Part shown: in pieces, positions 1 to 34,654 of the stretch
How the letters are laid out: the number at the start of each line of letters is the position of its first letter
Position numbering within the stretch: position 1 is the first letter of the stretch
From: Fibrobacterota bacterium
GTDB lineage: Bacteria > Fibrobacterota > Fibrobacteria > UBA11236
Length of the DNA stretch: 64,000 nt
Direction of reading: 5' to 3'
NCBI GenBank assembly: GCA_947482115.1
Contig: CANKII010000001.1
Location: forward strand, 577,840-641,839
Made by a program: the position numbers and the translations under genes
Notes under the pieces: generated by a model
What the model was told of the DNA's origin: nothing
The model's input: only the letters and a program-made list of their open reading frames with translations
Databases searched by the model: none

Positions 1-380
1 TGATAATCCTGAAGATTGGCCGATAGCGAAGCCGCGATGAACTCCAACGTGTCTTCCAGCTTATTCGGGGGCAACTTCAACGTACCGCCATCCTTGAGCA
101 AGCTGGAATAAAGTTGCAGTGTTGCCGTTTCTTCAGGCTTGTTCGGCAAATTCGGACGGGCGCACAACAAGGTGAGCTTCACGATGTCCAATGTGGAATC
201 GGGAACCAGATAAGCCACGGCTCCGTCTTTTAATTCCACGCGGTAGTCTTTGGGATAAGGCGGCTGATAAGACCATTGCGGAAAAACGATCTTCGAATAA
301 TGCGCAGGAATGGCGGGACCGGCGGGCTTTGCCGCCAAAGCTGCTGCAACGAAGGACAAGGCAAACAGAAGAGGTTTCAT
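1..380 (-). CDS. M16-family peptidase-like subunit (partial, N-terminal part; gene continues beyond the window start)
   Basis: Own translation of the minus strand from the ATG at 380..378: MKPLLFALSFVAAALAAKPAGPAIPAHYSKIVFPQW..., a signal-peptide-like N-terminus with no stop before the window edge. Its ATG overlaps the TGA of the upstream M16 gene (ATGA). M16 peptidases typically occur as adjacent pairs. The six-frame track lists only out-of-frame ORFs here. Confidence 0.5.
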   Translation of the reverse strand, partial: MKPLLFALSFVAAALAAKPAGPAIPAHYSKIVFPQWSYQPPYPKDYRVELKDGAVAYLVPDSTLDIVKLTLLCARPNLPNKPEETATLQLYSSLLKDGGTLKLPPNKLEDTLEFIAASLSANLQDY

Positions 381-1915
381 GGCTTACTCCCCTTGGGAAG
401 GAGAACCCCGACTGTTGCTGCATCACGCAGGAAGTATTTGGCGCAAACCTTCTGGACCTGTTCCGCACTGACTTTTTGCACGGCCTCCGGAAAGGTGTTG
501 ATGTTTTCCCAGCCGCCGCGCATTTCCCAATACGCCAGTTGCGTGGCAAGATTGTCGAGATTTTCCACGGCACGAATGCTGTTCGCAACCACTTGATTGC
601 GAGCGCGCTGCAATTCCCGTTCAGAGATGGGATGTTTGGCCATGTCGTCCAGCACTTCCCACACGGCCTTTTCCACCTTGTCTATTGCAGGAGCGCCATC
701 CAAATCCGCGCTAACCTGAAAATTTGAGGTGTATTTGGTAACATCATTTCCGGCCGAAGCGGAGATCGCCAGCTTCAACTCTTTCACGAGTTTCTGATAC
801 AGGCGACCGCTCTTTCCGGAGAGAACGCCTTCCACGACATCCAACGCATACAAGTCCTCGTTGGGAAACCCGGGCGTGTGAAAAAGAATGTCGAGCCGCG
901 GACGCGCATCGGCGCGATGCACGGTCAAGCGCTTTTCCCCGGCCTGTGGCGGCTCCTGCGTCACCACGGGAGGGAATTCCTCCCCGCGAGGAATTCCGTT
1001 GAAATAGCGTTTGATCTGGCTCATGGCCCAAGCCGTGTCCACATCTCCGGCCAGCACCAGAATGGCATTGTTGGGCTTGTAGTAACGGCGATAGTGATCC
1101 TCTGCCTCGCGCTGGGTCAGATATTTGATGTCGGAGGGATAACCAATGGTGGGAAAACGATAGGGATGCGCTTCGTAAAAAATGCCCATCAGACTTTCCC
1201 AATAGCGACCGGTAGGGCTGTCCTCGACACGCATGCGCCGTTCTTCCATCACCACATCGTGTTCCGGATAGAATTCGCGCAACACGGCATTTTTCATGCG
1301 GTCCGATTCCAACCACAGATAAAGTTCAACTTTATTTTTAGGAAGCGTCACAAAATAAGCCGTCATGAGGTCTGACGTAAACGCATTCAATTCCGTACCG
1401 CCGGCGCGTTCATAAGCGCCCCAGAGTTCTTCTTTGATCATGATTTTGCGCTGTTCGGCCAACAGAGAATCATAGCGCGACTTCCAACCGGCAGCCTTGA
1501 CTGAATCTTCGCGCACGGCTTCAAGACTATCCATCACCTTTTCAATTTTGGCTTCGAGAATCTGATCGCGTTTCGGATCGCTCGTTCCAATAGTCTTTGT
1601 GCCCTTGAACAGCAAATGCTCCAGCATGTGCGCAATGCCCGTGTGACCCGGCGCTTCATGCACCGAACCGGTCACATAAAACAAACGGCAGGACACGATG
1701 GGTGCGGTATGACTGGGATAAATGATGACCTTGAGGCCATTGTCCAATTGGGTATAAGCGGGATGAATGCCTTCGGCAGATGAAAGGCCGACAAAAATTG
1801 TCAGGGCGAGGCACCCTTCGACTACGCTCAGGGACCGTGCCTCGCCCTGACGCGAACCGGCGTTACGCCGGTTCAGGAACAATCGGCGCAGGTTCTGCAG
1901 GTGCATTGACCACAT
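377..1915 (-). CDS. M16 (pitrilysin/insulinase) family zinc peptidase, secreted
   Basis: 512-aa ORF with the inverted zinc-binding motif HxxEH (GIAHMLEHLLFKGT) and a hydrophobic signal-like segment after a long N-region. The exact start is uncertain: the ORF overlaps the upstream helicase by ~50 nt and contains hairpin element G. Confidence 0.8.
   Translation of the reverse strand: MWSMHLQNLRRLFLNRRNAGSRQGEARSLSVVEGCLALTIFVGLSSAEGIHPAYTQLDNGLKVIIYPSHTAPIVSCRLFYVTGSVHEAPGHTGIAHMLEHLLFKGTKTIGTSDPKRDQILEAKIEKVMDSLEAVREDSVKAAGWKSRYDSLLAEQRKIMIKEELWGAYERAGGTELNAFTSDLMTAYFVTLPKNKVELYLWLESDRMKNAVLREFYPEHDVVMEERRMRVEDSPTGRYWESLMGIFYEAHPYRFPTIGYPSDIKYLTQREAEDHYRRYYKPNNAILVLAGDVDTAWAMSQIKRYFNGIPRGEEFPPVVTQEPPQAGEKRLTVHRADARPRLDILFHTPGFPNEDLYALDVVEGVLSGKSGRLYQKLVKELKLAISASAGNDVTKYTSNFQVSADLDGAPAIDKVEKAVWEVLDDMAKHPISERELQRARNQVVANSIRAVENLDNLATQLAYWEMRGGWENINTFPEAVQKVSAEQVQKVCAKYFLRDAATVGVLLPKGSKP
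1800..1851. repeat. Hairpin element, type-2 core copy G: perfect 15-bp inverted repeat (gtcagggcgaggcac / gtgcctcgccctgac) around a 22-nt loop ccttcgactacgctcagggacc
   Basis: Read directly. The arms are exact reverse complements. The loop is the reverse complement of GGTCCCTGAGCGTAGTCGAAGG, which matches the type-2 core at 31449 and 61528 and resembles the type-1 core. It lies between the helicase stop (1863) and the peptidase hydrophobic core, in frame in the annotated peptidase N-terminus (RQGEARSLSVVEGCLALT). Confidence 0.7.
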
Positions 1916-3634: not shown

Positions 3635-4525
3635 CTAAGAGGGCGTTAAAACGCCATTGTCTTGCTTGAAAAAAGCCTGCTGTCGCGCCAAATGCGCCTT
3701 TTCGAATTCCTGTGCATCTTTCAATTCCTCTTCGGTCAAAACACCGGGTTCACCCGTCACTTCCAGAGCGGCTAGCATGGCTTTTGCCATCTCCAAAAAA
3801 CCTTCTTCGAATCCATTCTCAGGCAACGCGCGAATCTCACTCAACGACATGGCATGGCTTCGCAAGGAATCGAGATAAGCGGCACGTTGTTCTTCGTTGA
3901 GGCGGAGAATTTCCACCAGTCTTTCATGGTCCGGAGTCAAAGGAATGGAGCCATGTTGGAGAAAAGCTTCACGGGTCCTGCGCTGCGCCGAACCCACCAC
4001 CTTCCGTTCACCAAAAGCCAGTTCCGCCCGCGATGTGGATGCAAAACACGGCAGGGTGGATTGTTGGGTTATGGATTTTTTTGTTGAGGCGGACAGTCGG
4101 GGTAGCGCGGTCCCTGAGCCTGTCGAAGGGTGCGCCCCGACAACCGATAGACCAAATCCATTCAATGCCGCTGCCAACGCCCATCCGATCCGCTCATGCG
4201 AAACCGCCAGCGTCGAACACCATGCAGCCTCATCGCGTCGGGCAATCAGGGAATAAGTCAACTCTTCGGCATGCAATACCGCGCGCCCACCGGTGGGTCG
4301 CAACACAAAATCCCAACCGCGTTCTTGCAAGGCCGCCCTATCAAATTCTTCCGAAGGTTTCTGGAAATAGCCAAGGCTCACACACCAGGGTTCCCAACCG
4401 TAAAATCGCACCGTTGGCGGAGAGCGCTTCTCTTCCACCGCTTTCAGAACGGCTGCATCCACCGCCATGTTGAATGCTCCGCGATGTTTACCCGTGAATA
4501 AAATGCGCCACGGTTTTGCGTTCAT
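3635..4525 (-). CDS. Lipoate-protein ligase / octanoyltransferase family protein (BPL/LPL catalytic domain)
   Basis: 296 aa. The N-terminus (FTGKHRGAFNMAVDAAVLKAVEE...RFYGWEPWCVSLGYFQ) is typical of the LplA/LipM family. It carries an in-frame copy of hairpin element A encoding HPSTGSGTALPRL. Confidence 0.65.
   Translation of the reverse strand: MNAKPWRILFTGKHRGAFNMAVDAAVLKAVEEKRSPPTVRFYGWEPWCVSLGYFQKPSEEFDRAALQERGWDFVLRPTGGRAVLHAEELTYSLIARRDEAAWCSTLAVSHERIGWALAAALNGFGLSVVGAHPSTGSGTALPRLSASTKKSITQQSTLPCFASTSRAELAFGERKVVGSAQRRTREAFLQHGSIPLTPDHERLVEILRLNEEQRAAYLDSLRSHAMSLSEIRALPENGFEEGFLEMAKAMLAALEVTGEPGVLTEEELKDAQEFEKAHLARQQAFFKQDNGVLTPS
4096..4141. repeat. Hairpin element, type-1 core copy A (GGTCCCTGAGCCTGTCGAAGGG at 4109..4130) with imperfect flanking inverted repeats (gtcggggtagcgcg / tgcgccccgac)
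   Basis: Read directly. It lies inside the lipoate ligase CDS, in frame. Confidence 0.7.
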
Positions 4526-11706: not shown

Positions 11707-13562
11707 TAGTCGTCAACACCGGGCTCCAGCACTTCCTTGCGCTTCTTCCCGGTTTCCTCTTCGGTGGTATCTTCAACTGCAGCATCCGTTGAAGTGGATC
11801 CGCCTTCTGAAACAACCTTGCTGGAATCCCCGTTTGCCTTGGTGAATAACGAATCCATATCCGCTTTGGTGAAATTTGCGTAGACCATCTTGTCTCCGGC
11901 AATGCGGCCGTAAACCGTATTATGGTATTTCTTGTTCAAGGTGTAATAAGCAACTTTGGCCGAATCCAGACTGCCGTGTACCGGCGGCAGTTCATGCGCC
12001 TGACCCTCACGCAAAAAGGCCATGACGAAAAGCGCCTTTGGCGCAAATTGCGTCCGGGGATATTGCCCGTAAACCATCCGATAGGCGGGAACAACCTTTT
12101 TGGAAACATCCTCCCCGCCGAAACGCAGTTTTTCCGCTTCGAGAAAAAGGGTGTGCGCCCTGTCTTCGTCGGTTTGCACCGTCGGTTTTAAACCCAGATT
12201 TTTCTCCGCCTGTTTGGCCCATTCGGTATTGGGGAATTTTTCCAGCACATAGCGATAAAGCGAATCCCCCACGGGCTTGTTCTTCTTGAATTCCTCCTGA
12301 ATATAGGCCCGGGCATAGGCGGCGCGGATGGTATGGGTACTGTCGAGTGTGTTGCTGGCGACAATCTGGTTCAATCGTGCCAGCGCACTATCGACCTGCG
12401 AGAGATTGAAGAGGAACAATTCCGCAATCATGAAACTCGAGTAATGGGGTTGAACAGAATCCGGCTTGGCCTTCCGGAGTTCGGCAATGCGCGACAACGC
12501 ACGGGATTTCTCCGCGGCCAGAGCGCCGAACTCAAAACTTTGACCCACGGCTGCGGAGGAATCGAAGTAAACCTTGGCGGAGTCCTCCTGACGGAGCACT
12601 TCGAAATAATGATCCCCCAAGCGATAAAAGGCCTCGGCCGCAGGCGCCCCCCGGGGCTTCATGCGTGGAACCTGCCGGTAAAGATTTTCCGCTGCCTTCC
12701 AATCCCCCAAACCTTCCCTTCCCCGCCCCATCAACACCTTGATGTCCGGACGATAAGGCCCATACCCTTTCTGCTTGTATAGATGCTTCGCTTCATCAAT
12801 CCCGTCGGCAAACTGTTTCTCCCGGTATTTGCAAAGCAGCGCCAGCCGTTCATTGCGATACTTGAATTTGTCGGCGTAGATGTTGTGTTCCGGGGCCAGT
12901 GCATGTCCCCGAGCCCGCTCCCATTGGCCCAGATTAAACGAGAGCTTTGCAGCTTCCCAATGCACATCCGCCCGGACATCGTCGCTCAGGCCTTTCTGCT
13001 CCAAAAACTTTTCAAAATAAGTCAAACCCGCAGAAGCGGAATCCCCTTCCATTTCCATATGCGCCGCAAGCAACAGGGCTTCACGCAAAATTTCACCCGA
13101 GGGGTTTTTCTTCAGGACGATTTGCACCGCATCCCGTGCCTTGAGCATTTTTCCATCGAGATAAAAAGCCTTGGCGCGATGAATCTCCGCCAAAGGATTT
13201 TGCGGAGCCGTCGGATAATAACGCGCCAATTCCTCGTACTTCTCCACGGCCATTCCATAATCTTCCATCAGCAAATAACTCTCCCCCATCAGGAAAAGAG
13301 CCTTGGGCCCATAATCGGTGCGCTCCGGATAAAGCTCCAGCAACTTGGAACATTTGGCTATCGCGCGTTCAAACTTCAGCTTTTCTTCCGGCGTCACAAC
13401 CACCGAATCTTCCGGATCCTTGGCGAGGCGTTTTTCACGCATGCGAATGGCTTGATCGTAAGCTTTCTGCGCGTTGAAAAATGTGTTGAAATAAACACAG
13501 CCACCGAGCAGCAGTGACAACAGCATCAGACCGGGGAACAGGATTTTAAATCGGCGCGACAT
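11703..13562 (-). CDS. Tetratricopeptide-repeat lipoprotein (YbgF/BamD-like TPR protein)
   Basis: 619 aa. Signal peptide plus lipobox-like LLGGCVY; many TPR-like helical repeats; an acidic low-complexity C-terminal tail. Confidence 0.6.
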   Translation of the reverse strand: MSRRFKILFPGLMLLSLLLGGCVYFNTFFNAQKAYDQAIRMREKRLAKDPEDSVVVTPEEKLKFERAIAKCSKLLELYPERTDYGPKALFLMGESYLLMEDYGMAVEKYEELARYYPTAPQNPLAEIHRAKAFYLDGKMLKARDAVQIVLKKNPSGEILREALLLAAHMEMEGDSASAGLTYFEKFLEQKGLSDDVRADVHWEAAKLSFNLGQWERARGHALAPEHNIYADKFKYRNERLALLCKYREKQFADGIDEAKHLYKQKGYGPYRPDIKVLMGRGREGLGDWKAAENLYRQVPRMKPRGAPAAEAFYRLGDHYFEVLRQEDSAKVYFDSSAAVGQSFEFGALAAEKSRALSRIAELRKAKPDSVQPHYSSFMIAELFLFNLSQVDSALARLNQIVASNTLDSTHTIRAAYARAYIQEEFKKNKPVGDSLYRYVLEKFPNTEWAKQAEKNLGLKPTVQTDEDRAHTLFLEAEKLRFGGEDVSKKVVPAYRMVYGQYPRTQFAPKALFVMAFLREGQAHELPPVHGSLDSAKVAYYTLNKKYHNTVYGRIAGDKMVYANFTKADMDSLFTKANGDSSKVVSEGGSTSTDAAVEDTTEEETGKKRKEVLEPGVDDY

Positions 13563-13565
13563 TGG

Positions 13566-13613
13566 GAATAGTGTACGAAATTAGACCCGGCCTGTAAGGG
13601 CGACCCGGCGGGT
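13566..13613. repeat. REP-like GC-rich palindrome (ccggcctgtaagggcgaccc-ggc-gggtcgcccttacaggccgg), copy 1
   Basis: Read directly: ~20-bp perfect arms with a 3-nt centre. It lies between the carB stop and the start of the TPR gene. It shares the core GGGCGACCCGGCGGGTCGCCC with the palindrome at 20497. Confidence 0.7.
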
Positions 13614-13618
13614 CGCCC

Positions 13619-16600
13619 TTACAGGCCGGCGTGAAATTCCTGCAAGGAGCGGACTTCGAGTTCCCCGCGTTTCAGGGCGCGAATGGCTTCCAATGCCGCA
13701 CGTGCCGCAGACATGGTTGTCGTATAAGGAATCTGGGCAATGAGCGCAGCTTTACGAATCAAACCATCGTCTTCAATCGCAGCTTGTCCCAAAGGCGTGT
13801 TGATCAGCAAAGCGCATTCCTTGCTCTGAATCAAATCCACGATATGCGGAGAACCTTCGGAAACCTTGTTCAAGGCGCGACAGGAAATGTCGTGTTCACG
13901 CAACACCTTCGCCGTGCCTGAAGTCGCAAGCAATTCAAAGCCGAGTTCCTGTAAACCCTGCGCAATCGGGACAATATTTTTCTTATCGTGATTATTCACG
14001 GAGAGAAATACCTTCCCGTGACTGGGAAGGCTGTTCCCCGCTGCGATTTGCGCCTTGGCAAAGGCTCGTGAAAAATTCGAATCGATGCCCATCACCTCGC
14101 CGGTGGATTTCATCTCGGGGCTTAGCAAGGTATCGACACCGTGGAATTTTGCAAACGGGAATACGCTTTCCTTCACCGTGACATAATTGCCGATGCGGGC
14201 CTCGGTGAATCCCAATTCCTGCAAAGTTTTCCCGAGCATGGCCTTGGTCGCCAACTTGGTCAAAGGAACACCGAGTGTTTTGCTGACGAAAGGAACCGTG
14301 CGGCTGCCGCGTGGATTCACTTCCAGCACATAAACCACATCGTCCTTAATGGCATACTGGACATTCATCAATCCAATCACCTTAAGCTCTTTGGCCATGG
14401 CGATGGTTTGGCGGCGCATTTCTTCCAGTACCGATTCGGTAATGTCCTGCGGCGGCATGATGCAGGCGGAATCTCCGGAGTGAATACCGGCTTCTTCAAT
14501 GTGCTGCATGATTCCCGCCACCACTACGGTTTTCCCGTCGGAGATGGCGTCCACATCCACTTCCATCGCTTGATCGAGGAACTTGTCCACAAGCACAGGC
14601 CGCTCAGAAGAAGCCTCGACTGCAGTGGCCATGTAATGACGCAACTCGTCTTCAGAATACACGATAGCCATCGCACGTCCGCCAAGCACAAAAGAAGGAC
14701 GCAGTAAGACGGGATAGGTCAACCGGGCTGCAACGGCAACCGCTTCTTCGGTGTTCACAGCCAAACCATTGGGCGGTTGCTTGAGACCCAAACGATTGAC
14801 CAGTTCGGAGAACAACTTGCGATCTTCCGCGATGTCGATGGAAGAAGGCGAGGTTCCCAAAATGGGCGCATGAGCGGCCTCCAAAGCTTTCGCCAACTTC
14901 AACGGCGTTTGTCCGCCGAATTGCAGAATGACACCGTAGGGTTTTTCCAACTCGATGATGTTGAGAATATCTTCACGAGTCAACGGTTCGAAATAAAGTT
15001 TGTCCGAGGTATCGTAATCCGTACTTACCGTTTCGGGATTGGAGTTCACCATGATGGATTCGCAATCCTCTTCCTGTAATGCAAAGGACGCCTGACAACA
15101 GGCATAGTCGAACTCGATACCCTGACCGATGCGGTTCGGGCCACCACCAACGATGATCACCTTCTTGCGATTCGTAGGAACCGATTCATTTTCTTCATCG
15201 TACGTCGAATAATGATAAGGCGTGAACGCCTTGAACTCGGCGGCGCAGGTGTCGACCGTCTTGTACACCGGCATGATATTCAGCGCCTTGCGCTGTTGAC
15301 GCACATCCTCTTCCTTGGAACCGGATAAGTACGCCAGTTGCACGTCGGAATAGCCCCATTGCTTCGCTTTCCGCAAAGTTTCTTTGGGTAAAGATTTGAG
15401 CGACTTGCCCTTCAAGTCCGACGCTTCGAAACGAACCAGATCGAGAATGTGATTCAGGAACCACGGATCCATGCGGCACATGCCCTGAACCTTTTCCAGA
15501 CTCCAGCCCAATTCAAAGGCGCGCTTCACGGAGAAAACACGGTTGATGCCGGGATGTTTGAAGTCGAGATTCTTTTCGATTTGATCGTCGGGAATTTCTT
15601 TTTTCCCGTCGGCGCCCAAACCGTAGCGGTCGATTTCCAGCGAGCGCATGGCTTTCTGCAGGGACTCTTTGAAAGTGCGACCGATGGCCATGGCCTCGCC
15701 CACCGACTTCATCTGCGTGCCCAGAACCGATTCCGCCTGCGCAAACTTCTCGAAGGTAAAACGCGGAACCTTGGTCACGACATAATCGATGGTCGGTTCA
15801 AAACAGGCAGGCGTGACGCGGGTGATGTCGTTCTTCAATTCATCCAGCGTATAGCCAACCGCAAGTTTGGCGGCGATTTTGGCAATGGGAAAACCAGTAG
15901 CCTTGGACGCCAATGCCGAACTGCGCGACACACGCGGATTCATCTCAATGATGATCAAGCGGCCGTCTTTGGGATTCACGGCGAATTGCACGTTGGAACC
16001 GCCGGTCTCCACTCCGATTTCACGGATGCAGGCGATGGAGGCATCGCGCATGCGCTGGTATTCCTTGTCCGTCAGCGTTTGCGCCGGAGCCACGGTGATG
16101 GAATCACCGGTGTGAATGCCCATGGCGTCCACGTTTTCAATGGAACAGATGATGACGACATTGTCCTTGCGGTCGCGCATCACTTCCATCTCGAATTCTT
16201 TCCATCCCACCATCGATTCCTCGACGAGGATTTCGGAAATCGGACTCAATGACAAACCACTGCGCGCAATGCGTTCAAATTCTTCTTCGGAGTATGCAAA
16301 GCCTCCGCCTGCTCCACCCATGGTGAAAGCCGGACGGATGACCAACGGCAAACCGATTTCCTTCATGGCGATGCGCGCTTCGTCCATGGTTCGGGCGACA
16401 AAAGACCGCGCTGAATCAATGCCAATTTTCGTCATCGCATCTTTGAACAACTTGCGCGACTCGGCTTTTTTGATGGCTTCCAGATTCGCGCCGATCATTT
16501 CGACGCCGTACTTTTCCAGAATGCCGCGTTCGGCCAGTTCGACGGCCGTGTTCAATCCCGTTTGTCCGCCCAAAGTGGGCAACAAGGCATCGGGTCTTTC

Positions 16601-17490: not shown

Positions 17491-18513
17491 TTATGGGGAA
17501 GTAAAAATGACCCCGTCATAACCCACCGCGACAAGTTTTCCGGTCCCTGAGCCTGTCGAAGGGCTTGTCCCCGCGACGGAATACAAGACGGATTTGGCAG
17601 CCAACGAATCGTTTGTCCAATGGACGCCATCATCTGAAACCAAAACCGTTCCTTCATAACCCACCGCAATAAATCGTCTGTTGTTCCACGTAATCGAGTT
17701 CAAGACGCCAAACGATCCCCGGGAAGCCCAGGTTACACCGTCCGGAGAAGCCAAAATATCTCCGTTGTTGCTTACAGCAACCAGTTGACTTCCACTCCAT
17801 GCGAGGGAGGAAAGGGCATTCGTGATGCCGGAACTTTGTTCCATCCACGTCACGCCATCTTGTGAAGTGAGAACCGTACCGTAGTAGCCCACTGCAATCA
17901 TCCGCGTTCCACTCCATGCCACGGAATACAAGTCTTCACCCCCTAAAACACCGTCACTTCCACCGTGAACCGGATCCTGCCGTCCCAATACCGGAAGCCG
18001 TTCGGTCCATGTAATTGCATCGGGAGATGTTAGTATGATCCCATCCCAGCCCACTGCCACAAAGAGTCCGGTCCCTGAGCCTGTCGAAGGGCCGGTCCAA
18101 ATAACCGAGTTTAAAATTGCCGATACTCCAGAATTCCGCTCTGTCCACACCACGCCATTCGGCGATGTTAAAACAATGCCGCCAGACCCCACAGCCACTA
18201 ACTGTCCGGGCCCTGAGCCTGTCGAAGGGCCTGTCCAAATCACAGAGTTCAAGGGATTTTCAGTTCCCGAAATTTGCTTTGTCCAGGTTGCTCCATCGGA
18301 CGACGTCAGAATAATTCCACTCGAACCGACGGCCACCCATTGATGATCCGCCCAAGTCACCGAATTCAATGCCTCGGTTGTTCCCGAGACCTGTTGTGTC
18401 CAAGACTTTCCCAAATTCACATTTTCATCATTGCCGGTCGAAGTCCTCATGCAATTCCAGAGAAACATCGGAATGATCAAAAAGGCTCCAATAAAAAGAT
18501 TCTTATTGCGCAT
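17491..18513 (-). CDS. Secreted BNR/Asp-box repeat protein (Ycf48-like beta-propeller)
   Basis: Signal peptide. Six or more S-x-D-G-x-T-W BNR motifs (TSSDGATWT, TSPNGVVWT, TSQDGVTWM, ASPDGVTWA, VSDDGVHWT). Three copies of PSTGSG(T/P)G are encoded by the hairpin-element core. Confidence 0.65.
   Translation of the reverse strand: MRNKNLFIGAFLIIPMFLWNCMRTSTGNDENVNLGKSWTQQVSGTTEALNSVTWADHQWVAVGSSGIILTSSDGATWTKQISGTENPLNSVIWTGPSTGSGPGQLVAVGSGGIVLTSPNGVVWTERNSGVSAILNSVIWTGPSTGSGTGLFVAVGWDGIILTSPDAITWTERLPVLGRQDPVHGGSDGVLGGEDLYSVAWSGTRMIAVGYYGTVLTSQDGVTWMEQSSGITNALSSLAWSGSQLVAVSNNGDILASPDGVTWASRGSFGVLNSITWNNRRFIAVGYEGTVLVSDDGVHWTNDSLAAKSVLYSVAGTSPSTGSGTGKLVAVGYDGVIFTSP
17542..17563. repeat. Hairpin element, type-1 core copy B (GGTCCCTGAGCCTGTCGAAGGG), flanked by gacaag/cttgtc
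   Basis: Read directly; inside the BNR gene, where it encodes PSTGSGT. Confidence 0.7.
18070..18091. repeat. Hairpin element, type-1 core copy C
   Basis: Read directly; inside the BNR gene (PSTGSGTG). Confidence 0.7.
18208..18229. repeat. Hairpin element, type-1 core copy D (GGGCCCTGAGCCTGTCGAAGGG)
   Basis: Read directly; inside the BNR gene, 141 bp from copy C (one protein-repeat period). Confidence 0.7.
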
Positions 18514-20494: not shown

Positions 20495-20496
20495 GG

Positions 20497-20535
20497 CCGG
20501 TAGGGGCGACCCGGCGGGTCGCCCCTACCGGCCCC
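20497..20535. repeat. REP-like GC-rich palindrome (ggccggtaggggcgaccc-ggc-gggtcgcccctaccggcc), copy 2
   Basis: Read directly: 18-bp perfect arms. It sits between the rplS stop and the recG start. It has the same core as the 13566 copy, with two compensatory arm differences. Confidence 0.75.
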
Positions 20536-23500: not shown

Positions 23501-24049
23501 TTAAGCTTCGGGTGCGGCTTCCGCAGGAACTTCGGCAGCAGCAACCTTCGCGGCAGCTTCGGCTTCCTTCGCAGCGGCTTTGGCAGCTTCTTCAGCAACC
23601 TTTGCAGCAGCAGCTTCCTTGGCAGCTGTTTCAGCGGCGGCCTTCGCGGCAGCAGCTTCCTTGACGGCAGCTTCAGCAGCGTTCTTGGCAGCAGTTGCCT
23701 GCTCCGCCTTCACCACCTTGTGGATCTTGACCTTCTTGCTGAGAACAGCACGAGATTTGAGAGGAGCTTCGGCGGTTGCCTTGCCCTTCGCAATCAACTG
23801 TGCTTTTTCCATGATGCCGTGACGATGGAACAAGGACTTCACTGTGTCGCTCGGACGAGCGCCGTCTTTGATCCACTTCAAGGCGCTGGCCTCGTTCACC
23901 TTCACCGCAGGCGGGTTCAGGGTCGGATCATAGTGACCGATTTGTTCGAGAAATTTTCCCGTAGCCGCAGAGCGGGAATCCGCAACTGTGATGCGGTAAA
24001 AAGGCTTGTGAGTGTGGCCCATGCGAGCCAAGCGAATAACAACTGCCAA
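23501..24049 (-). CDS. rpsP: 30S ribosomal protein S16 with a long Ala/Lys/Glu-rich C-terminal tail
   Basis: The N-terminal ~90 aa are canonical S16 (MAVVIRLARMGHTHKPFYRI). The C-terminal ~80 aa are a low-complexity AAKEAAAAKA... tail. Confidence 0.85.
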   Translation of the reverse strand: MAVVIRLARMGHTHKPFYRITVADSRSAATGKFLEQIGHYDPTLNPPAVKVNEASALKWIKDGARPSDTVKSLFHRHGIMEKAQLIAKGKATAEAPLKSRAVLSKKVKIHKVVKAEQATAAKNAAEAAVKEAAAAKAAAETAAKEAAAAKVAEEAAKAAAKEAEAAAKVAAAEVPAEAAPEA

Positions 24050-29433: not shown

Positions 29434-30552
<1,119 letters not shown>

Positions 30553-30588
30553 CCCGCCGCGCTTCGACAGGCTCAGCGACCGGCGTGT
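30553..30588. repeat. Hairpin element, type-1 core copy F, reverse orientation, diverged (cgcttcgacaggctcagcgacc), flanked by cgccgcgc / gcgaccggcg
   Basis: Read directly; immediately 3' of the leuB stop, in a convergent intergenic region. Confidence 0.6.
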
Positions 30589-30604: not shown

Positions 30605-30937
30605 CTATTTCTTCTTCGGCAACCCTGCTGCGTATTTCACACCGATTTCGATCCACTTTCCCAACGCTGCGTCCGTGGCCAATGCCTTGGGTCCCACCAA
30701 TATCCAGCCCTTCATGGGTTTTCCGGTGATGTCGAAGGGACGGACATGCGGTTTGGATAAAGCCTTGTCCCAATCTTCCGGGTCCATGCGGACAATCATT
30801 TCGTCACCGTATACGCCGACGGACATGTTGCCGTTGAGGAGAAAAGCCATTCCGCCGAACATTTTTTTGTCCACAAGGCCGGGTTGTTTTACGATGCGTT
30901 TGAGAATTCGTTCAGCAAGTTGTTGATCGTAGGCCAT
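30605..30937 (-). CDS. TfoX/Sxy N-terminal-domain-like protein
   Basis: 110 aa. The LVDKKMFGGMAFLLNGNM...VR pattern resembles the TfoX_N domain. Confidence 0.45.
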   Translation of the reverse strand: MAYDQQLAERILKRIVKQPGLVDKKMFGGMAFLLNGNMSVGVYGDEMIVRMDPEDWDKALSKPHVRPFDITGKPMKGWILVGPKALATDAALGKWIEIGVKYAAGLPKKK

Positions 30938-31476: not shown

Positions 31477-33252
31477 TTAATCCTTCGCAACAGATTCCGA
31501 ATCCCACGTGTCCTTCATGTTTTCCCCGCGATGAATGATAAAATCCTCCATCACCAGACAATCGATTCCCGTTCCCATCATACAGCGATATGCCTGTTCC
31601 GGCGTGCAGACAATCGGTTCGCCGCGGATGTTGAACGAAGTGTTCACCAGCATCGGCACACCCGACAGTCCGCCGAAGGTCTTGATGAGATCATAATAAA
31701 GCGCATTGGTTTCCCGCCGTACCGTTTGCAGCCGTCCGCTGCCATCCACATGCGTCACCGCCGGAAGCTTCTCACGCCATTCCGGCCGCACCGGATAGAC
31801 CATCAGCATGAAATCCGTCGGCAATGGAACCGGATCATCGCATTCAAAGTATTTCGGCGCATCCTCGACACAAACAGACGGGGCGAAGGGACGGAAGATT
31901 TCACGATGCTTGACCTTGAGATTCAGAATGTCCCGCATGTTGGGATCACAGGGATTGGCCAGAATACTGCGTGCGCCCAGCGATCGTGGTCCCCATTCCA
32001 TTCGTCCCTGAAACCATCCCACCACTTTACCGGATTGAATCAGGTTTGCCGTTTCATCCAACAACTTTTCCCGCGATGGGAAGCGATGATGGACAATGTT
32101 TTGGCCGCGCAGAAAGGACTCGACTTCATCCGAAGAAAAGCTGGGGCCAAGATAAGGATGATGTAACGTGTGATTTGGAGAAGCAATTTGCCGGGGATTG
32201 TTGAATAAGGCATGATGTACATACAATGCCGTACCCATGCTGGAACCACCATCCCCTGCATTGGGCTGTATCCAGACATTTTGAAAATCCGTCTGCGAAA
32301 GAATCTTTCCATTACCAACGCTGTTCAATGCTACCCCACCGGATAATACCACGTTCGGACATTGGGTGGTTCGGTGCAATTGGCGCAGCATGGCAATCAC
32401 TGCTTCTTCGGTGATGATCTGGACTGCGGCGGCAATGTTCTCATGCCTCGAGGTCACCGGGTCCTCAGGCTTGCGAGGTGAACCACCAAGATGATCGCAC
32501 AACTTTTTCGAAGGCATCCGCTCGGCGAATTCATAATCGAAATAGCTCATGTCCAATTGAAAACTGCCGTCGGGTTTCAAATCGATTACTTGCTTCAACT
32601 TTGTGTAATACGGATTTGAAACAGGATTTTTGTCACCGTAAGCCGAAAGACCCATCACCTTGTACTCGGAATTATTGACGGAGAATCCCAGATACGCCGT
32701 GACCGTGGAATACAGCAAGCCAATGGAATGCGGAAAGCGGATTTCCTTGTGAAGTTCCAGCTGTGTTCCACGACCCATCCCCATTGCAGCCGTTGTCCAC
32801 TCCCCCACCCCGTCCACCGTCAACACAGCGGCTTCGTCAAAAGGACTCGGGTAAAAGGCTCCGGCCGCATGGGACAAATGATGTTCGAGAAAAAACACAT
32901 CGCCGCGATAACCGAGTTTCTTTTTGAACAACTTGCGGACACGCAATTTTTCCGTGAGCCACGAAGGCATGGCGCGTTGAAACACCATGAAGCTGCGGGG
33001 AAAATGCTGAACATGCTGCGTCAACAACCTCTCAAACTTGATCAGGGGTTTTTCATAAAAGGCGAGGGCATCCACTTCGCCAATATCAAGTCCGCCCTGC
33101 TTCAGGCAAAAAGCCACGGCATTTTCGGGAAAGGCGGGATCGTGTTTGCGCCGTGTGAAACGTTCCTCCTCGGCTGCGGCGACAATCCCACCATCCCGAA
33201 TCAAGGTCGCTGCGGCGTCGTGATAATGGCAACTGATGCCGAGAATATTCAT
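31477..33252 (-). CDS. Carbamoyltransferase (NodU/CmcH family)
   Basis: 591 aa. MNILGISCHYHDAAATLIRDGGIVAAAEEERFTRRKHD is a typical carbamoyltransferase N-terminus (ASKHA-fold, YrdC/Kae1-like). Confidence 0.85.
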   Translation of the reverse strand: MNILGISCHYHDAAATLIRDGGIVAAAEEERFTRRKHDPAFPENAVAFCLKQGGLDIGEVDALAFYEKPLIKFERLLTQHVQHFPRSFMVFQRAMPSWLTEKLRVRKLFKKKLGYRGDVFFLEHHLSHAAGAFYPSPFDEAAVLTVDGVGEWTTAAMGMGRGTQLELHKEIRFPHSIGLLYSTVTAYLGFSVNNSEYKVMGLSAYGDKNPVSNPYYTKLKQVIDLKPDGSFQLDMSYFDYEFAERMPSKKLCDHLGGSPRKPEDPVTSRHENIAAAVQIITEEAVIAMLRQLHRTTQCPNVVLSGGVALNSVGNGKILSQTDFQNVWIQPNAGDGGSSMGTALYVHHALFNNPRQIASPNHTLHHPYLGPSFSSDEVESFLRGQNIVHHRFPSREKLLDETANLIQSGKVVGWFQGRMEWGPRSLGARSILANPCDPNMRDILNLKVKHREIFRPFAPSVCVEDAPKYFECDDPVPLPTDFMLMVYPVRPEWREKLPAVTHVDGSGRLQTVRRETNALYYDLIKTFGGLSGVPMLVNTSFNIRGEPIVCTPEQAYRCMMGTGIDCLVMEDFIIHRGENMKDTWDSESVAKD

Positions 33253-33492: not shown

Positions 33493-33514
33493 CCCTTCGA
33501 CAGGCTCAGGGACC
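33493..33514. repeat. Hairpin element, type-1 core copy E, reverse orientation (cccttcgacaggctcagggacc)
   Basis: Read directly; in the 344-bp divergent intergenic region between the carbamoyltransferase and ilvE. It is followed by the 10-bp palindrome ctgaattcag. Confidence 0.7.
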
Positions 33515-33595: not shown

Positions 33596-34606
33596 ATGCA
33601 ACTCGACTGGAAAAACCTCGGTTTTCAATACCTTCCCACTCACGGTCAGGCGCAATGCGATTTTGCCGATGGGAAATGGGGTTCTCTGGAGTTCCAGACG
33701 AATCCCATGCTCAGTATGCATGTGGCCGCCAATTGCCTGCATTACGGTCAGGCCATTTTTGAAGGCCTGAAAGCTTTCCGCACCAAGGATGGCCGGGTAG
33801 TGATGTTCCGCCCGGACAAGAACGCCAGTCGCATGCGGGAATCCGCCGAACGGCTTTGCATGGAAGCCCCATCCGATGAGCTCTTTATAGAAGCCTGCAA
33901 AATGGCCGTGACTCGCAATATCGATTTTGTCCCACCTTATGGAACCGGTGCAAGCCTTTATCTCCGTCCGCTGCTCATCGGTACCGAAGCCACGGTGGGT
34001 ATTAAGGCTTCATCATCCTATACCTTCCTCGTGCTCGTAACGCCCGTGGGTCCTTATTACAAGGACGGTTTTCATCCCGTGGAAGCTTTGGTCATGCTGG
34101 ATTATGATCGCGCCGCGCCGAAAGGCACGGGCCGGGCCAAAACTGCGGGCAATTATGCCGCCAGTCTATTGCCGGGTTTGTTGGGAAAGAAAAAAGGCTT
34201 TCCCATCATCCTCTTTGCCGATCCCAAGGAAAACAAATATGTGGATGAATTCGGAACCTCCAACTTCATCGGCATTACAGCTGCCGGAGAGTACAAGACC
34301 CCTGACTCCTCATCCATCCTGCAAAGCGTGACCAACGAAAGCCTGCAACTCTTGGCAGCGGAAATGGGACTCAAAGTGGTGAAGGAACCCATTGCATTGG
34401 ATTCACTCGGTCAATTTTCCGAAGTGGGCGCATGCGGCACGGCAGCGGTGATTACACCGGTGCATGCCGTGCATTATGGGGAAAAAGTTTTCCGGTTTGG
34501 TGAAAAAGACAAAGCGGGCCAAACTCTGGCCCGCCTGTATAAAAACCTGCAAGCCATCCAGTACGGGGACTCTCCCGATACGCATGGATGGTTGGTAGAG
34601 GTTTAA
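33596..34606 (+). CDS. ilvE: Branched-chain amino acid aminotransferase (fold type IV)
   Basis: 336 aa. Typical class IV aminotransferase motifs (FEGLKAFR, GTGAAL-like region, catalytic Lys). Confidence 0.85.
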   Translation: MQLDWKNLGFQYLPTHGQAQCDFADGKWGSLEFQTNPMLSMHVAANCLHYGQAIFEGLKAFRTKDGRVVMFRPDKNASRMRESAERLCMEAPSDELFIEACKMAVTRNIDFVPPYGTGASLYLRPLLIGTEATVGIKASSSYTFLVLVTPVGPYYKDGFHPVEALVMLDYDRAAPKGTGRAKTAGNYAASLLPGLLGKKKGFPIILFADPKENKYVDEFGTSNFIGITAAGEYKTPDSSSILQSVTNESLQLLAAEMGLKVVKEPIALDSLGQFSEVGACGTAAVITPVHAVHYGEKVFRFGEKDKAGQTLARLYKNLQAIQYGDSPDTHGWLVEV

Positions 34607-34618
34607 CAAAAATGCAGC

Positions 34619-34654
34619 CCCGTAGGGGGCGCATTTTTGTTACGCCCCTTACGG
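34619..34654. terminator. Bidirectional terminator-like hairpin (cccgtagggggcg - catttttgtta - cgccccttacgg)
   Basis: Read directly; between the convergent ilvE and adhesin-gene stops. 12-bp arms with one mismatch and a T-rich loop. Confidence 0.45.

Follow-up and report, generated by a model that had tools for sequence, protein, structure and literature searches.

A 46-nt segment inside an LplA/LipM-family gene of a Fibrobacterota bacterium most probably belongs to a family of REP-like hairpin repeats dispersed through the genome; it is translated in passing and is probably neutral, and we put the probability of this reading at roughly three in four. The segment occupies positions 4096-4141 of the window, by which we mean the whole 64-kb stretch of DNA that was analysed (64,000 nt).

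Anatomy of the composite hairpin

The segment reads GTCGGGG(ta)GCGC, followed by a 22-nt core and by (t)GCGCCCCGAC. Its outer arms are GTCGGGG (4096-4102) and CCCCGAC (4135-4141), and inner pairing is formed by GCGC at 4105-4108 with GCGC at 4132-4135. The features of the locus are as follows.

3635-4525, minus strand: LplA/LipB/LipM-family gene, 296 aa, with K175 and a P159-C160-F161 motif
4096-4141, minus strand: composite hairpin inside the LplA/LipM-family ORF, encoding V129-G-A-H-P-S-T-G-S-G-T-A-L-P-R143
4096-4108: left outer arm GTCGGGGTAGCGC; read along the coding strand, the first letters of the element are GTCGGGGCGCAC
4109-4130, plus strand: "type-1" core GGTCCCTGAGCCTGTCGAAGGG, 22 nt, with a 4-bp stem CCCT/AGGG and an 11-nt loop GAGCCTGTCGA
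4109-4129, minus strand: 21-nt unit CCT TCG ACA GGC TCA GGG ACC, encoding PSTGSGT, residues 133-139
4131-4141: right outer arm TGCGCCCCGAC, assigned from sequence and fold

The coding-strand start of the element, GTCGGGGCGCAC, resembles in its letters a REP stem of the GTAG class. The element itself starts with GTCG, and GTAG is found at 4102-4105 within the left arm. The predicted fold has an energy of -23.8 kcal/mol on the mRNA strand and -25.5 kcal/mol on the plus strand. Relative to its own composition, this stability is unexceptional (z = -1.2 for the mRNA strand and -1.4 for the plus strand), and core-only copies likewise show no exceptional thermodynamic stability (z of about 0).

The host gene

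The host protein matches the Pfam families LplA-B_cat and BPL_LplA_LipB (2.9e-30 and 1.5e-13, respectively), and its fold is similar to LplA structures (Foldseek hits 3r07 and 2art, E values of 1e-17 to 1e-16, TM score of 0.8). In an alignment of 114 sequences, the catalytic Lys, K175, is invariant, and P159, C160 and F161 are each at least 90% conserved. We take the Cys residue of the PCF motif to be typical of LipM-type octanoyltransferases; these LipM features, together with the acpP neighbourhood, suggest that the host enzyme is presumably an octanoyltransferase and not a ligase. The gene closes a plsX-fabH-fabD-fabG-acpP-rnc cluster, with a 4-nt overlap at the rnc stop; the gene order acpP-rnc-lplA-helicase is common to the orthologous loci L138 and L139. 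A single search of genome contigs with the host protein returned only Gemmatimonadota homologues, at 35-40% identity.

The insertion seen against homologues

The ORF at 3635-4525 (minus strand) is open over 296 aa and reads ...GFGLSVVGAH-PSTGSGT-ALPRLSAS... across the hairpin. The original prediction that the core and its flanking inverted repeats lie in frame within this ORF is thus confirmed, and the coordinates are exact. None of the 119 retrieved LplA-family homologues contains PSTGSGT, nor was the core peptide found in them in any frame or at any distance. The proposal that the segment is specific to this lineage stands accordingly, since none of the 119 homologues, distant orthologues included, carries a homologous segment of the same length. 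In size, the element falls short of the 13-15 aa or so that it was thought to add: compared with the closest homologue, it contributes a net 7 aa (21 nt).

This closest homologue, P0002, is 80% identical to the host protein. The two match through VVGAH, the peptide of the left arm, which is common to both, and again from QSTLPCF; in between, P0002 is 7 residues shorter. Because the loops between the shared flanks (22 aa in the host protein versus 15 aa in P0002) cannot be aligned, we infer a clean 21-nt insertion in the lplA-family gene, from the P0002 length difference and the propeller case described below, rather than see it directly. Among the homologues, the loop in its basal form spans 17-19 conserved aa (..DRGYPVEKPQALRAMTPCF), while in the clade around the host protein the loops are expanded and hypervariable. 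An AlphaFold model of the host protein (pLDDT of 91.6, pTM of 0.90) has low confidence only at residues ~131-160 (57, 56 and 67), and the PSTGSGT site lies within this sole low-confidence stretch. On the predicted structure, the insert falls in a loop, which is hypervariable among relatives.

At the same place, the DNA of three orthologues carries other palindromes (GTAGGGGCAATTCATGAATTGCCCCTAC in L138, CCTGTAGGGGCGAT..ATCACCACAGG in L139, and GGGTCGGACGGCCGTCCGCCC in L003), and related loops in other orthologues carry V-G-A...P-L-R/Q palindromes. Because VVGAH is common to P0002 and such loops occur in the orthologues, the outer stem looks like an older, REP-type palindrome, in which the core may have become nested or from which it may have been lost.

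Other copies in the window and the size of the unit

Six matches to the core were found in the window with up to 3 mismatches, versus 0.00 expected (100 shuffles). They start at 4109, 17542, 18070 and 18208 on the plus strand and at 30560 and 33493 on the minus strand, and a seventh copy is a variant at 1815-1836. In addition to the lplA element, the following features were identified.

1800-1851: second composite hairpin, with a 15-bp perfect stem GTCAGGGCGAGGCAC/GTGCCTCGCCCTGAC and the variant core CCTTCGACTACGCTCAGGGACC (1815-1836) as its apex
13572-13644: intergenic GTAG-class palindrome with core GTAAGGGCGACCCGGCGGGTCGCCCTTAC, at the carB/TPR-gene junction
17542-17563, plus strand: core copy within the beta-propeller-like ORF 17491-18513 (minus strand), where it lies in the last blade and encodes PSTGSGT
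18070-18091, plus strand: core copy in the propeller ORF 17491-18513 (minus strand), encoding PSTGSGT
18208-18229, plus strand: core copy with 1 mismatch in the propeller ORF 17491-18513 (minus strand), encoding PSTGSGP
20495-20533: intergenic GTAG-class palindrome, GGCCGGTAGGGGCGACCCG-G-CGGGTCGCCCCTACCGGCC
30560-30581, minus strand: intergenic core copy between the convergent leuB (29461-30552, plus strand) and TfoX_N (30605-30937, minus strand) genes
33493-33514, minus strand: intergenic core copy between the divergent carbamoyltransferase (31477-33252, minus strand) and class IV aminotransferase (33596-34606, plus strand) genes

In total, seven copies of the core and four GTAG-like palindromes were counted in the window. 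The palindromes other than the lplA element start with GTAG (at 20500), GTAA (at 13594) and GTCA (at 1800), and bare cores are untagged. The 20495-20533 palindrome belongs to one stem family with the outer arms of the two composite elements. The lplA core is identical at 22 of 22 positions to three other copies in the window. At 30560, the two mismatches are a compensatory pair, CGCT/AGCG replacing CCCT/AGGG. Every core copy in the window is single, with no inverted doublets, and neither a transposase nor a RAYT was found among the 40 ORFs scanned.

The second composite hairpin (-36 kcal/mol, z = -5.3 to -6.7) is built exactly like the lplA element, as a stem with the core at its apex. It lies at a helicase/M16 junction and is kept at the orthologous L139 site, 12581-12634, where the stem has diverged yet is still paired and the apex is conserved; with respect to transcription, this apex has the reverse orientation. 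In L139, the position orthologous to the carB/TPR-gene junction is occupied by a different GTAG palindrome.

Four of the seven core copies lie in ORFs, and three of these share one gene. All four genic copies encode a 7-aa peptide, PSTGSG(T/P). The earlier statement that the peptide is PSTGSGT in every case holds up to its last residue, one copy reading PSTGSGP. Since three of the four copies sit in blades of a single protein, they count as only about two independent instances. The propeller gene has an orthologue, P0121, which is 53% identical and colinear and lacks all three PSTGSG segments. A codon alignment of the two genes shows three gaps, each of exactly 21 nt, and in the propeller model a loop joining two strands grows from 4 to 11 residues through the inserts. 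Because each gap is exactly 21 nt, the unit gained or lost is, as judged from this alignment, 21 nt (GGTCCCTGAGCCTGTCGAAGG), and the reading frame is kept. A unit that is a multiple of three and stop-free in five of the six reading frames would almost never break a gene on insertion.

The repeat family beyond this genome

The 19-nt heart of the core is present in at least 120 viral contigs (IMG/VR), and at least 120 metagenome contigs carry the core in its full 22 nt; the GC contents of the carrier contigs range from 33 to 73%. With a related 32-nt query, ATCCGTTCGCCCTGAGCCTGTCGAAGGGCCGC, matches of at least 95% identity were found in proteobacterial replicons, those of Sphingobium, Novosphingobium, Comamonas, Polaromonas, Moraxella and Methylotuvimicrobium. 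Nearly unchanged, 19-22 nt recur in at least two phyla. The 11-nt loop is conserved across unrelated copies, and the adjoining stem covaries: at three stem positions, Watson-Crick pairs were found in 55, 47 and 33 of 68 copies, versus 27.7, 24.5 and 20.4 after permutation, and the observed value was reached in none of 5,000 permutations. Long flanking inverted repeats were rejected as a general feature of the core, given that extensions of at least 6 bp occur in 4 of 267 copies versus 1.9 in controls; where the stems are long, at 4096-4141 and 1800-1851, the elements are local composites. In other genomes (L103 and L030), the motif does occur as inverted doublets.

For the frame statistics, a copy was assigned to an ORF by a crude criterion, under which the longest ORF had to span 150 codons or more and be 1.5 or more times as long as the second longest; this yielded 147 ORF-embedded copies. 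These use all five stop-free frames: PSTGSG in 54 copies, PEPVEG in 43, LRQAQG in 27, PFDRLR in 12 and LSLSKG in 11 (chi-square p = 6e-10), so that PSTGSG is the commonest, at 37%. They show no orientation bias (93:54 versus the 3:2 expected from open frames, p = 0.45). A constraint on orientation and frame, which had been proposed from the genic copies in the window, is not borne out by these counts. Nor, by this crude assignment, is the core depleted from ORFs, with 54% of copies lying in a dominant ORF versus 57% of random positions (p = 0.44).

No target-site duplication was consistent across copies. At the Rfam gathering threshold, there were no matches in the window or in eight motif-bearing loci, where only generic long-hairpin miRNA models appeared below threshold. 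A CRISPR array was dropped on anatomy, there being no spacers, and a tRNA or rRNA fragment and an uptake sequence were dropped as well, as the core is not known to resemble such sequences and is spread across phyla. In the papers searched, neither the 12-mers nor the six peptide signatures occur in a relevant context. The family does not seem to have been described previously, though gene-embedded repeats are already known.

Origin of the segment

The reading that we prefer supposes that the repeat reached the lplA-family site at the DNA level and is simply translated there. A GTAG-type palindrome would have come first, in a loop that is long and disordered and ends a short way before the catalytic-Cys motif (PCF), and the 21-nt unit would then have settled at the apex of this older palindrome; we infer this order, palindrome first and core second. 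The unit would add PSTGSGT, a flexible Pro/Ser/Thr/Gly peptide that is most likely neutral for the enzyme. Candidates for its mobilization are a trans-acting enzyme of the HUH/Y1 type, acting on single-stranded DNA, and templated copying at hairpins; no HUH/Y1-type enzyme was seen among the 40 ORFs scanned. The description as a neutral passenger may not hold for every copy, as the conserved apex and covarying stem at an orthologous intergenic site in a relative suggest that some core copies are under selection.

Alternatively, the hairpin may be kept for a cis role at the RNA or DNA level, as a processing or stability element, an RNase III site or a translational pause between the enzyme halves. 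Such a role would fit several observations: (i) among copies, covariation is seen in the stem around the conserved loop, and the intergenic copy at 30560 has a compensatory pair; (ii) the composite at the helicase/M16 junction is kept at its orthologous L139 site with a paired stem and a conserved apex; (iii) the lplA-family gene overlaps by 4 nt the gene just upstream, rnc, which encodes RNase III; and (iv) the orthologues retain some palindrome in the lplA loop. We nevertheless consider a cis role for the lplA copy unlikely, given that its folding is unexceptional (z = -1.2), that P0002 lacks the core and that the apex at the L139 site is inverted relative to transcription. Furthermore, the lack of orientation bias of ORF-embedded copies with respect to the coding strand (93:54 versus 3:2, p = 0.45) argues against a strand-specific RNA role.

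An ancestral core, lost from P0002 and other relatives (possibly by precise excision), would account for the VVGAH that P0002 retains and for the difference of exactly 7 aa, and composites of a stem with a core apex can be old, as illustrated by the pair at 1800-1851 of the window and 12581-12634 of L139. However, the core peptide occurs in 0 of 119 homologues in any frame, and the 22/22 identity of the lplA core with three window copies indicates a recent origin, which makes this scenario very unlikely. Protein-level selection of PSTGSGT, for a flexible linker or an extended loop of advantage to both the enzyme and the propeller, with its recurrence a convergent or duplicated protein feature and not a DNA repeat, would not be expected to conserve the DNA, yet the copies agree in all 21-22 nucleotides, synonymous sites among them; identical copies are also intergenic, in both orientations, and the 19-mer is translated in four other frames elsewhere. 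No homologous loops were seen that encode PSTGSGT-like peptides by different codons. We regard such selection as highly improbable, even though the peptide is rich in Pro, Ser, Thr and Gly and always lies in loops, PSTGSG is the commonest frame among ORF-embedded copies, and WTG-PSTGSGA-GQ stands at the same position in one blade of P0238, a propeller homologue that is unrelated. The chance that the segment is an assembly or sequencing artefact is negligible: nothing was found in its favour, NCBI, ENA and Logan assemblies carry the identical host protein on 27 contigs of up to 1.75 Mb, its frame is unbroken and the model is confident on either side of the segment.

Wider significance

The lplA insertion itself is probably harmless and ordinary for a repeat-rich genome. 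What is notable is the family, with 19-22 nt nearly unchanged across 33-73% GC, its loop/stem pattern, its frame-preserving length and its lack of depletion from ORFs; it offers a tractable case of how tiny repeats without coding capacity move and of how protein loops are lengthened. For annotation, PSTGSG, PEPVEG, LRQAQG, PFDRLR and LSLSKG in proteins mark repeat-derived sequence and not homology. A broader proposal, which we regard as rather unlikely, is that the 21-nt unit belongs to a pan-bacterial class of coding-compatible micro-elements, crossing phyla and residing in ORFs as readily as in spacers; the features of the class would be the conserved 11-nt loop GAGCCTGTCGA, a free covarying stem, a multiple-of-three length and a stop in one of the six frames. 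HUH-type single-strand DNA nucleases act on substrates of this geometry, with a loop that is conserved and a GC-rich stem that varies, and by analogy the conserved loop could be the recognition or nicking site of a putative, widely distributed enzyme. If this were true, a defined mechanism acting time and again would be lengthening protein loops in many bacteria.

Comparison with known systems

MITEs have terminal inverted repeats and a target-site duplication and are 50-500 bp long, whereas the present element is far smaller and no consistent duplication flanks the core copies. The small dispersed repeats (SDRs) of Nostoc and related cyanobacteria, reportedly described by Elhai et al. in 2008, are said to be 21-27 nt long and to stand out as separate inserts where the surrounding sequence is conserved, at times inside other repeats. 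By this description, they are alike in size (about 21-27 nt), in hairpin capability and in discrete insertion, but they would be other sequences and restricted to cyanobacteria.

REPINs are extragenic doublets of inverted REPs, and the single-copy RAYT gene is flanked by REPs (Bertels and Rainey 2011, PMC3116915). Both they and the present family are short, hairpin-forming repeats that multiply in a genome without coding capacity of their own; however, the window cores are single, 4/7 lie in ORFs and no transposase is found among the 40 ORFs scanned.

Rickettsia palindromic elements (RPEs) are rickettsial and about 100-150 bp long (PMC10969869); they form ten families and carry a conserved peptide that runs to tens of residues. 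As in RPEs, a palindrome lies in frame in unrelated housekeeping genes at positions tolerated by the protein (PMC10969869); here, the 296-aa ORF is intact and the insert lies in the only low-pLDDT loop. The resemblance to RPEs noted in the original prediction is therefore sound as an analogy, but RPEs of about 150 bp in a rickettsial host are set apart by size and host from a 46-nt hairpin with a 21-nt (7-aa) net unit in Fibrobacterota. In keeping with this host, the best named matches of LeuB are Fibrobacteria MAGs, at 83-85%. By analogy, the lplA element would work like RPEs and intragenic REPs, and it is not an RPE.

GTAG/CGTC REPs are likewise short, dispersed stem-loops, often located between convergent or co-directional genes and sometimes wholly in frame in ORFs. 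They are mainly extragenic and downstream of ORFs, whereas the core lies in ORFs in 4/7 cases here and in 54% elsewhere. The core also differs in having a conserved 11-nt loop, a covarying stem and no evident terminal GTAG/CGTC tag, in being nearly identical across very different genomes, and in that no RAYT was seen in the window; its peptide signatures are absent from the supplementary tables of PMC3733652. The likeness to GTAG-class stems concerns the outer arms (GTCGGGGCGC...) and the palindromes at 13594 and 20500 (GTAGGGGCG...). A closer precedent than RPEs appears to be provided, by analogy, by the single intragenic REPs of Opitutus terrae and other species, which encode 7-8 aa, with the peptides GTGVPPV, PGSASPA and VGPALAAG in O. 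terrae (Di Nocera, De Gregorio and Rocco 2013, PMC3733652): an intragenic single unit adds 7-8 residues there and 7 aa here, at four genic sites.

A palindromic hairpin in frame in the lplA gene

The hairpin predicted at 4096-4141 lies at exactly these coordinates and consists of inverted arms around the 22-nt type-1 core (GTCGGGG-TA-GCGC-GGTCCCTGAGCCTGTCGAAGGG-T-GCGC-CCCGAC). As was also predicted, the ORF that contains it (lplA ORF, 3635-4525, minus strand) stays open, over 296 aa; its coding strand reads GTC GGG GCG CAC CCT TCG ACA GGC TCA GGG ACC GCG CTA CCC CGA C across the element, giving V129 G A H P S T G S G T A L P R143. At up to three mismatches the core matches the window six times, against 0.00 expected from shuffles, and there is a seventh, variant copy. 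The exact coordinates, the open ORF, and the repeated core copies thus confirm the observation.

Copies of the core in the window
1800-1851, variant core (CCTTCGACTACGCTCAGGGACC) capping a perfect stem of 15 bp
4096-4141, core with inverted arms within the lplA ORF (minus strand)
17491-18513 (minus strand), ORF with three copies encoding PSTGSGP/T
30560, spacer with convergent genes on either side
33493, spacer with divergent genes on either side

The two mismatches of the copy at 30560 form a compensatory pair (CCCT/AGGG to CGCT/AGCG). The lplA hairpin has a predicted energy of -23.8 kcal/mol, unexceptional for its composition (z = -1.2), and bare cores fold with z near 0; the 1800-1851 element is predicted to be highly stable (-36 kcal/mol, z < -5).

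The host protein matches the Pfam families LplA-B_cat (2.9e-30) and BPL_LplA_LipB (1.5e-13), and its high-confidence model (pLDDT 91.6, pTM 0.90) superposes on lipoate-protein ligase structures, e.g., Thermoplasma LplA (E 1e-17 to 1e-16). Across 114 family members K175 never varies, and conservation of P159-C160-F161 is 90% or higher; this Pro-Cys-Phe motif is located 15 residues ahead of the invariant Lys. The database protein (P0001) lacks the N-terminal 19 residues; this stretch can be aligned to homologues and forms a strand in the model, which makes the 296-aa ORF the better gene model. The ORF overlaps the rnc stop by 4 nt and ends a plsX-fabH-fabD-fabG-acpP-rnc cluster (reaching about 9245), after which come XPB-type helicase and M16 peptidase genes, in an order kept in two relatives (loci L138 and L139). 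The Cys-Lys arrangement and the place beside acpP suggest what we take to be a putative LipM-type octanoyltransferase (octanoyl-ACP transferase), not a ligase. No transposase was found among the 40 window ORFs scanned, and the window is ordinary core chromosome. For LeuB, the closest relatives that carry a name, at 83-85% identity, come from Fibrobacteria/Fibrobacterota MAGs.

A 21-nt unit that comes and goes

The product of the ORF at 17491-18513 has seven propeller-like blade repeats (LNSVxWxG..VAVGxxGxILTSxDGxxW) and is a lipoprotein candidate of seven-bladed, propeller-like type. PSTGSG(T/P) is present at the equivalent loop of three of the seven blades and missing from the other four. The best homologue (P0121; 53% identical and colinear across 316 aa) is without all three segments, and the codon alignment with its DNA (L362) has three gaps, each of exactly seven codons, CCT TCG ACA GGC TCA GGG (A/C)CC. 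In a further homologue, P0238, WTG-PSTGSGA-GQLVAVG appears in a single blade, at the same position within the blade. According to an AlphaFold model (pLDDT 87.2), a loop between strands grows from 4 to 11 residues with each insert, and confidence drops locally. By the seven-codon gaps, the variable unit measures 21 nt, which is divisible by three; 21 nt is also the excess of the lplA loop over that of its closest homologue. Five of the six core frames are open, the only stop being in the CCC TGA frame.

Elsewhere in the window, a 1469-aa ORF (34649-39058, minus strand) encodes 13 Ig_3/I-set-like domains, and its DNA contains tandem repeats of 507 and 252 nt with 61-85% identity. The ribosomal protein S16 gene (23501-24049, minus strand) has a long repetitive tail beyond the S16 domain: the Pfam match is limited to residues 9-67 of 182, and the tail consists of GCAGC-rich short repeats (23514-23710).

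The lplA loop as a palindrome site

On whether the segment is an insertion specific to this lineage, the alignment shows that neither PSTGSG nor the peptides of other core frames occur in any of 119 homologues of the lplA ORF (E < 1e-42). The closest one, P0002 (80% identical), agrees with the query through ...GFGLSVVGAH and again from QSTLPCFASTSR... onward; between these flanks it has 15 residues and the query 22, a net difference of seven, and the two stretches are unalignable. A short conserved loop (..DRGYPVEKPQALRAMTPCF, 17-19 aa) is common to distant homologues and a few nearer ones; the loops in the query's clade are 20-53 aa long and without conservation. Peptide signatures of palindromic repeats are present in at least 15 further homologues, and the palindromes are borne out in the DNA of three orthologue loops.

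Palindrome signatures in the loops of lplA-ORF homologues
VGAIHELPLR, P0004 and P0040
VGAIRELPLQ, P0023
VGAIRESPQ, P0007
VGANNHLPLQ, P0026; close variants in P0037, P0039, and P0044
MSNEYAPLR, P0016 and P0025; MSDEFAPLR, P0027; GVNDYAPLR, P0017
VGTRHAVSLQ, P0029

Palindromes in the DNA of orthologue loops
L138 2370-2403, perfect 28-nt palindrome GTAGGGGCAATTCATGAATTGCCCCTAC
L139 10382-10412, CCTGTAGGGGCGAT..ATCACCACAGG
L003, loop region, GGGTCGGACGGCCGTCCGCCC

Residues ~131-160 are the sole low-confidence part of the protein model, and the insert falls in this loop. The low confidence and the varied palindromes together point to a permissive, disordered site that has repeatedly hosted palindromes; the lplA loop either has accepted palindromes time and again or has long held one, and the core, judged from the sequences compared, is specific to the window's lineage. 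Since the left arm VVGAH is common to the query and P0002 and the V-G-A...P-L-R/Q pattern recurs among relatives, the outer stem looks like an older GTAG-type palindrome.

Long-lived palindrome sites at other junctions

The 1800-1851 hairpin occupies the helicase/M16 junction and has an equivalent in L139 (12581-12634; ATAGGGGCGATTCG-CCCTTCGACTCCGCTCAGGGACC-ACGAATTGCCTCTAT), in which the outer stem has diverged yet is still paired and the conserved apex (GGTCCCTGAGCG[T/G]AGTCGAAGG) is reversed with respect to the genes on either side. GTAG-class palindromes (GTAGGGGCGACCCG-G-CGGGTCGCCCCTAC and a GTAA variant) occur in the spacers at 13572-13644 and 20495-20533, just 3' of the carB stop and of the rplS stop, the latter upstream of recG. 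At the carB/TPR junction, the window and L139 (1198-1240) have different GTAG-type palindromes in the orthologous place. Both junctions indicate that palindrome sites are long-lived, their sequences turning over while symmetry is maintained, which fits an old palindrome in the lplA loop.

In its longest form, the M16-peptidase ORF (377-1915, minus strand) begins on the upstream side of the 1800-1851 hairpin and continues across it (...GEARSLSVVEGCLALTIFVGLSSAEG...). There is no in-frame ATG, GTG, or TTG between the hairpin and the conserved mature M16 region, so some of the signal peptide may be encoded by the right arm; the M16 start codon of L139 is at the 3' foot of the hairpin. Directly adjoining this composite element, a perfect 9-bp hairpin (1854-1874; GAACCGGCG-TTA-CGCCGGTTC) has the helicase stop (TAA, minus strand) for its loop.

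The repeat family is widely dispersed

The 19-mer CCCTGAGCCTGTCGAAGGG was found in at least 120 IMG/VR contigs and the 22-mer core in at least 120 JGI metagenome contigs, the carriers having unrelated flanks and GC contents of 33 to 73%. The common 32-nt form ATCCGTTCGCCCTGAGCCTGTCGAAGGGCCGC, used as query against plasmids and megaplasmids, gave matches of at least 95% identity in a number of proteobacterial genera.

Carriers of the 32-nt form
Sphingobium, up to 22 places per replicon
Novosphingobium
Sphingomonas
Comamonas, 12-15 places per replicon
Polaromonas, Moraxella osloensis, and Methylotuvimicrobium

In sphingomonads, the 19-mer makes up the left portion of an element of ~110 nt with inverted termini (CCCGTTCG...CGAACGG), seen on the Sphingobium sp. 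TomTYG74 megaplasmid (L363, 19995-20103) with convergent genes on either side; the window's 21-nt unit may represent a single arm of a longer element of this kind.

Among 68 copies picked by loop pattern only (TGAGCCTGTCGAAG), Watson-Crick pairing at the three positions beyond the closing pairs is seen in 55, 47, and 33 copies, against 27.7, 24.5, and 20.4 on permutation; none of 5000 permutations reached the observed counts, and C-G, G-C, T-A, and A-T all occur. This covariation identifies the element as a hairpin whose 11-nt loop is conserved and whose stem is free to covary. On a survey of copies, long inverted repeats at the flanks were rejected as a general feature of the core.

Origin of the segment

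The original interpretation is essentially right, and we give a probability of about 0.75 to the lplA segment having arisen at the DNA level as one copy of a dispersed REP-like hairpin repeat, whose translation extends a disordered loop by seven flexible residues with no consequence for the enzyme. The repeat might have been mobilised in trans by a HUH/Y1 enzyme specific for ssDNA, the route proposed for REPs/REPINs, or might have spread through templated copying or gene conversion at hairpins; neither target duplication nor a consistent tag was seen at the window copies. We infer that the core was added later at the stem apex or was lost from P0002, the second course being the rival view of an ancestral core. 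An artefact would be a further rival; the feature is real.

Two other rivals assign the segment a function, either a cis-acting RNA or DNA role of the hairpin or selection at the protein level. Given the persistence of palindrome sites, neutrality should not be assumed for every copy. The share of the 272 copies that fall within a dominant long ORF of their contig is 54%, compared with 57% for positions drawn at random from these contigs (p = 0.44). The 147 ORF-embedded copies use all five open frames, unevenly (PSTGSG 54, PEPVEG 43, LRQAQG 27, PFDRLR 12, LSLSKG 11; chi-square p = 6e-10), and this preference for Gly/Ser/Thr/Pro-rich frames fits a selective filter on peptide tolerance. Their orientation (93:54) fits three versus two open frames (p = 0.45), and this absence of a strand preference speaks against genic copies having a strand-specific role as RNA.

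Comparison with known systems

The suggested resemblance to Rickettsia palindromic elements (RPEs) stands as to how the element works and fails as to identity: RPEs are ~150 bp and rickettsial (PMC10969869), and the element is not an RPE. The closest precedent is the intragenic GTAG/CGTC-tagged REPs of Di Nocera et al. (PMC3733652), who listed ~70 REPs lying in frame in genes of Opitutus terrae; a single unit encodes 7-8 aa, and some are in 2-oxoacid dehydrogenase E2 subunits. The core sequence and its peptide signatures are absent from the tables of that paper, from Rfam, and from the searchable literature. In-frame repeats of this sort are a known phenomenon; this family of repeats seems not to have been described. 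Unlike the GTAG/CGTC-tagged REPs, the core has a conserved loop and a variable stem, is without an evident tag, is near-identical across phyla, and is not depleted from ORFs.
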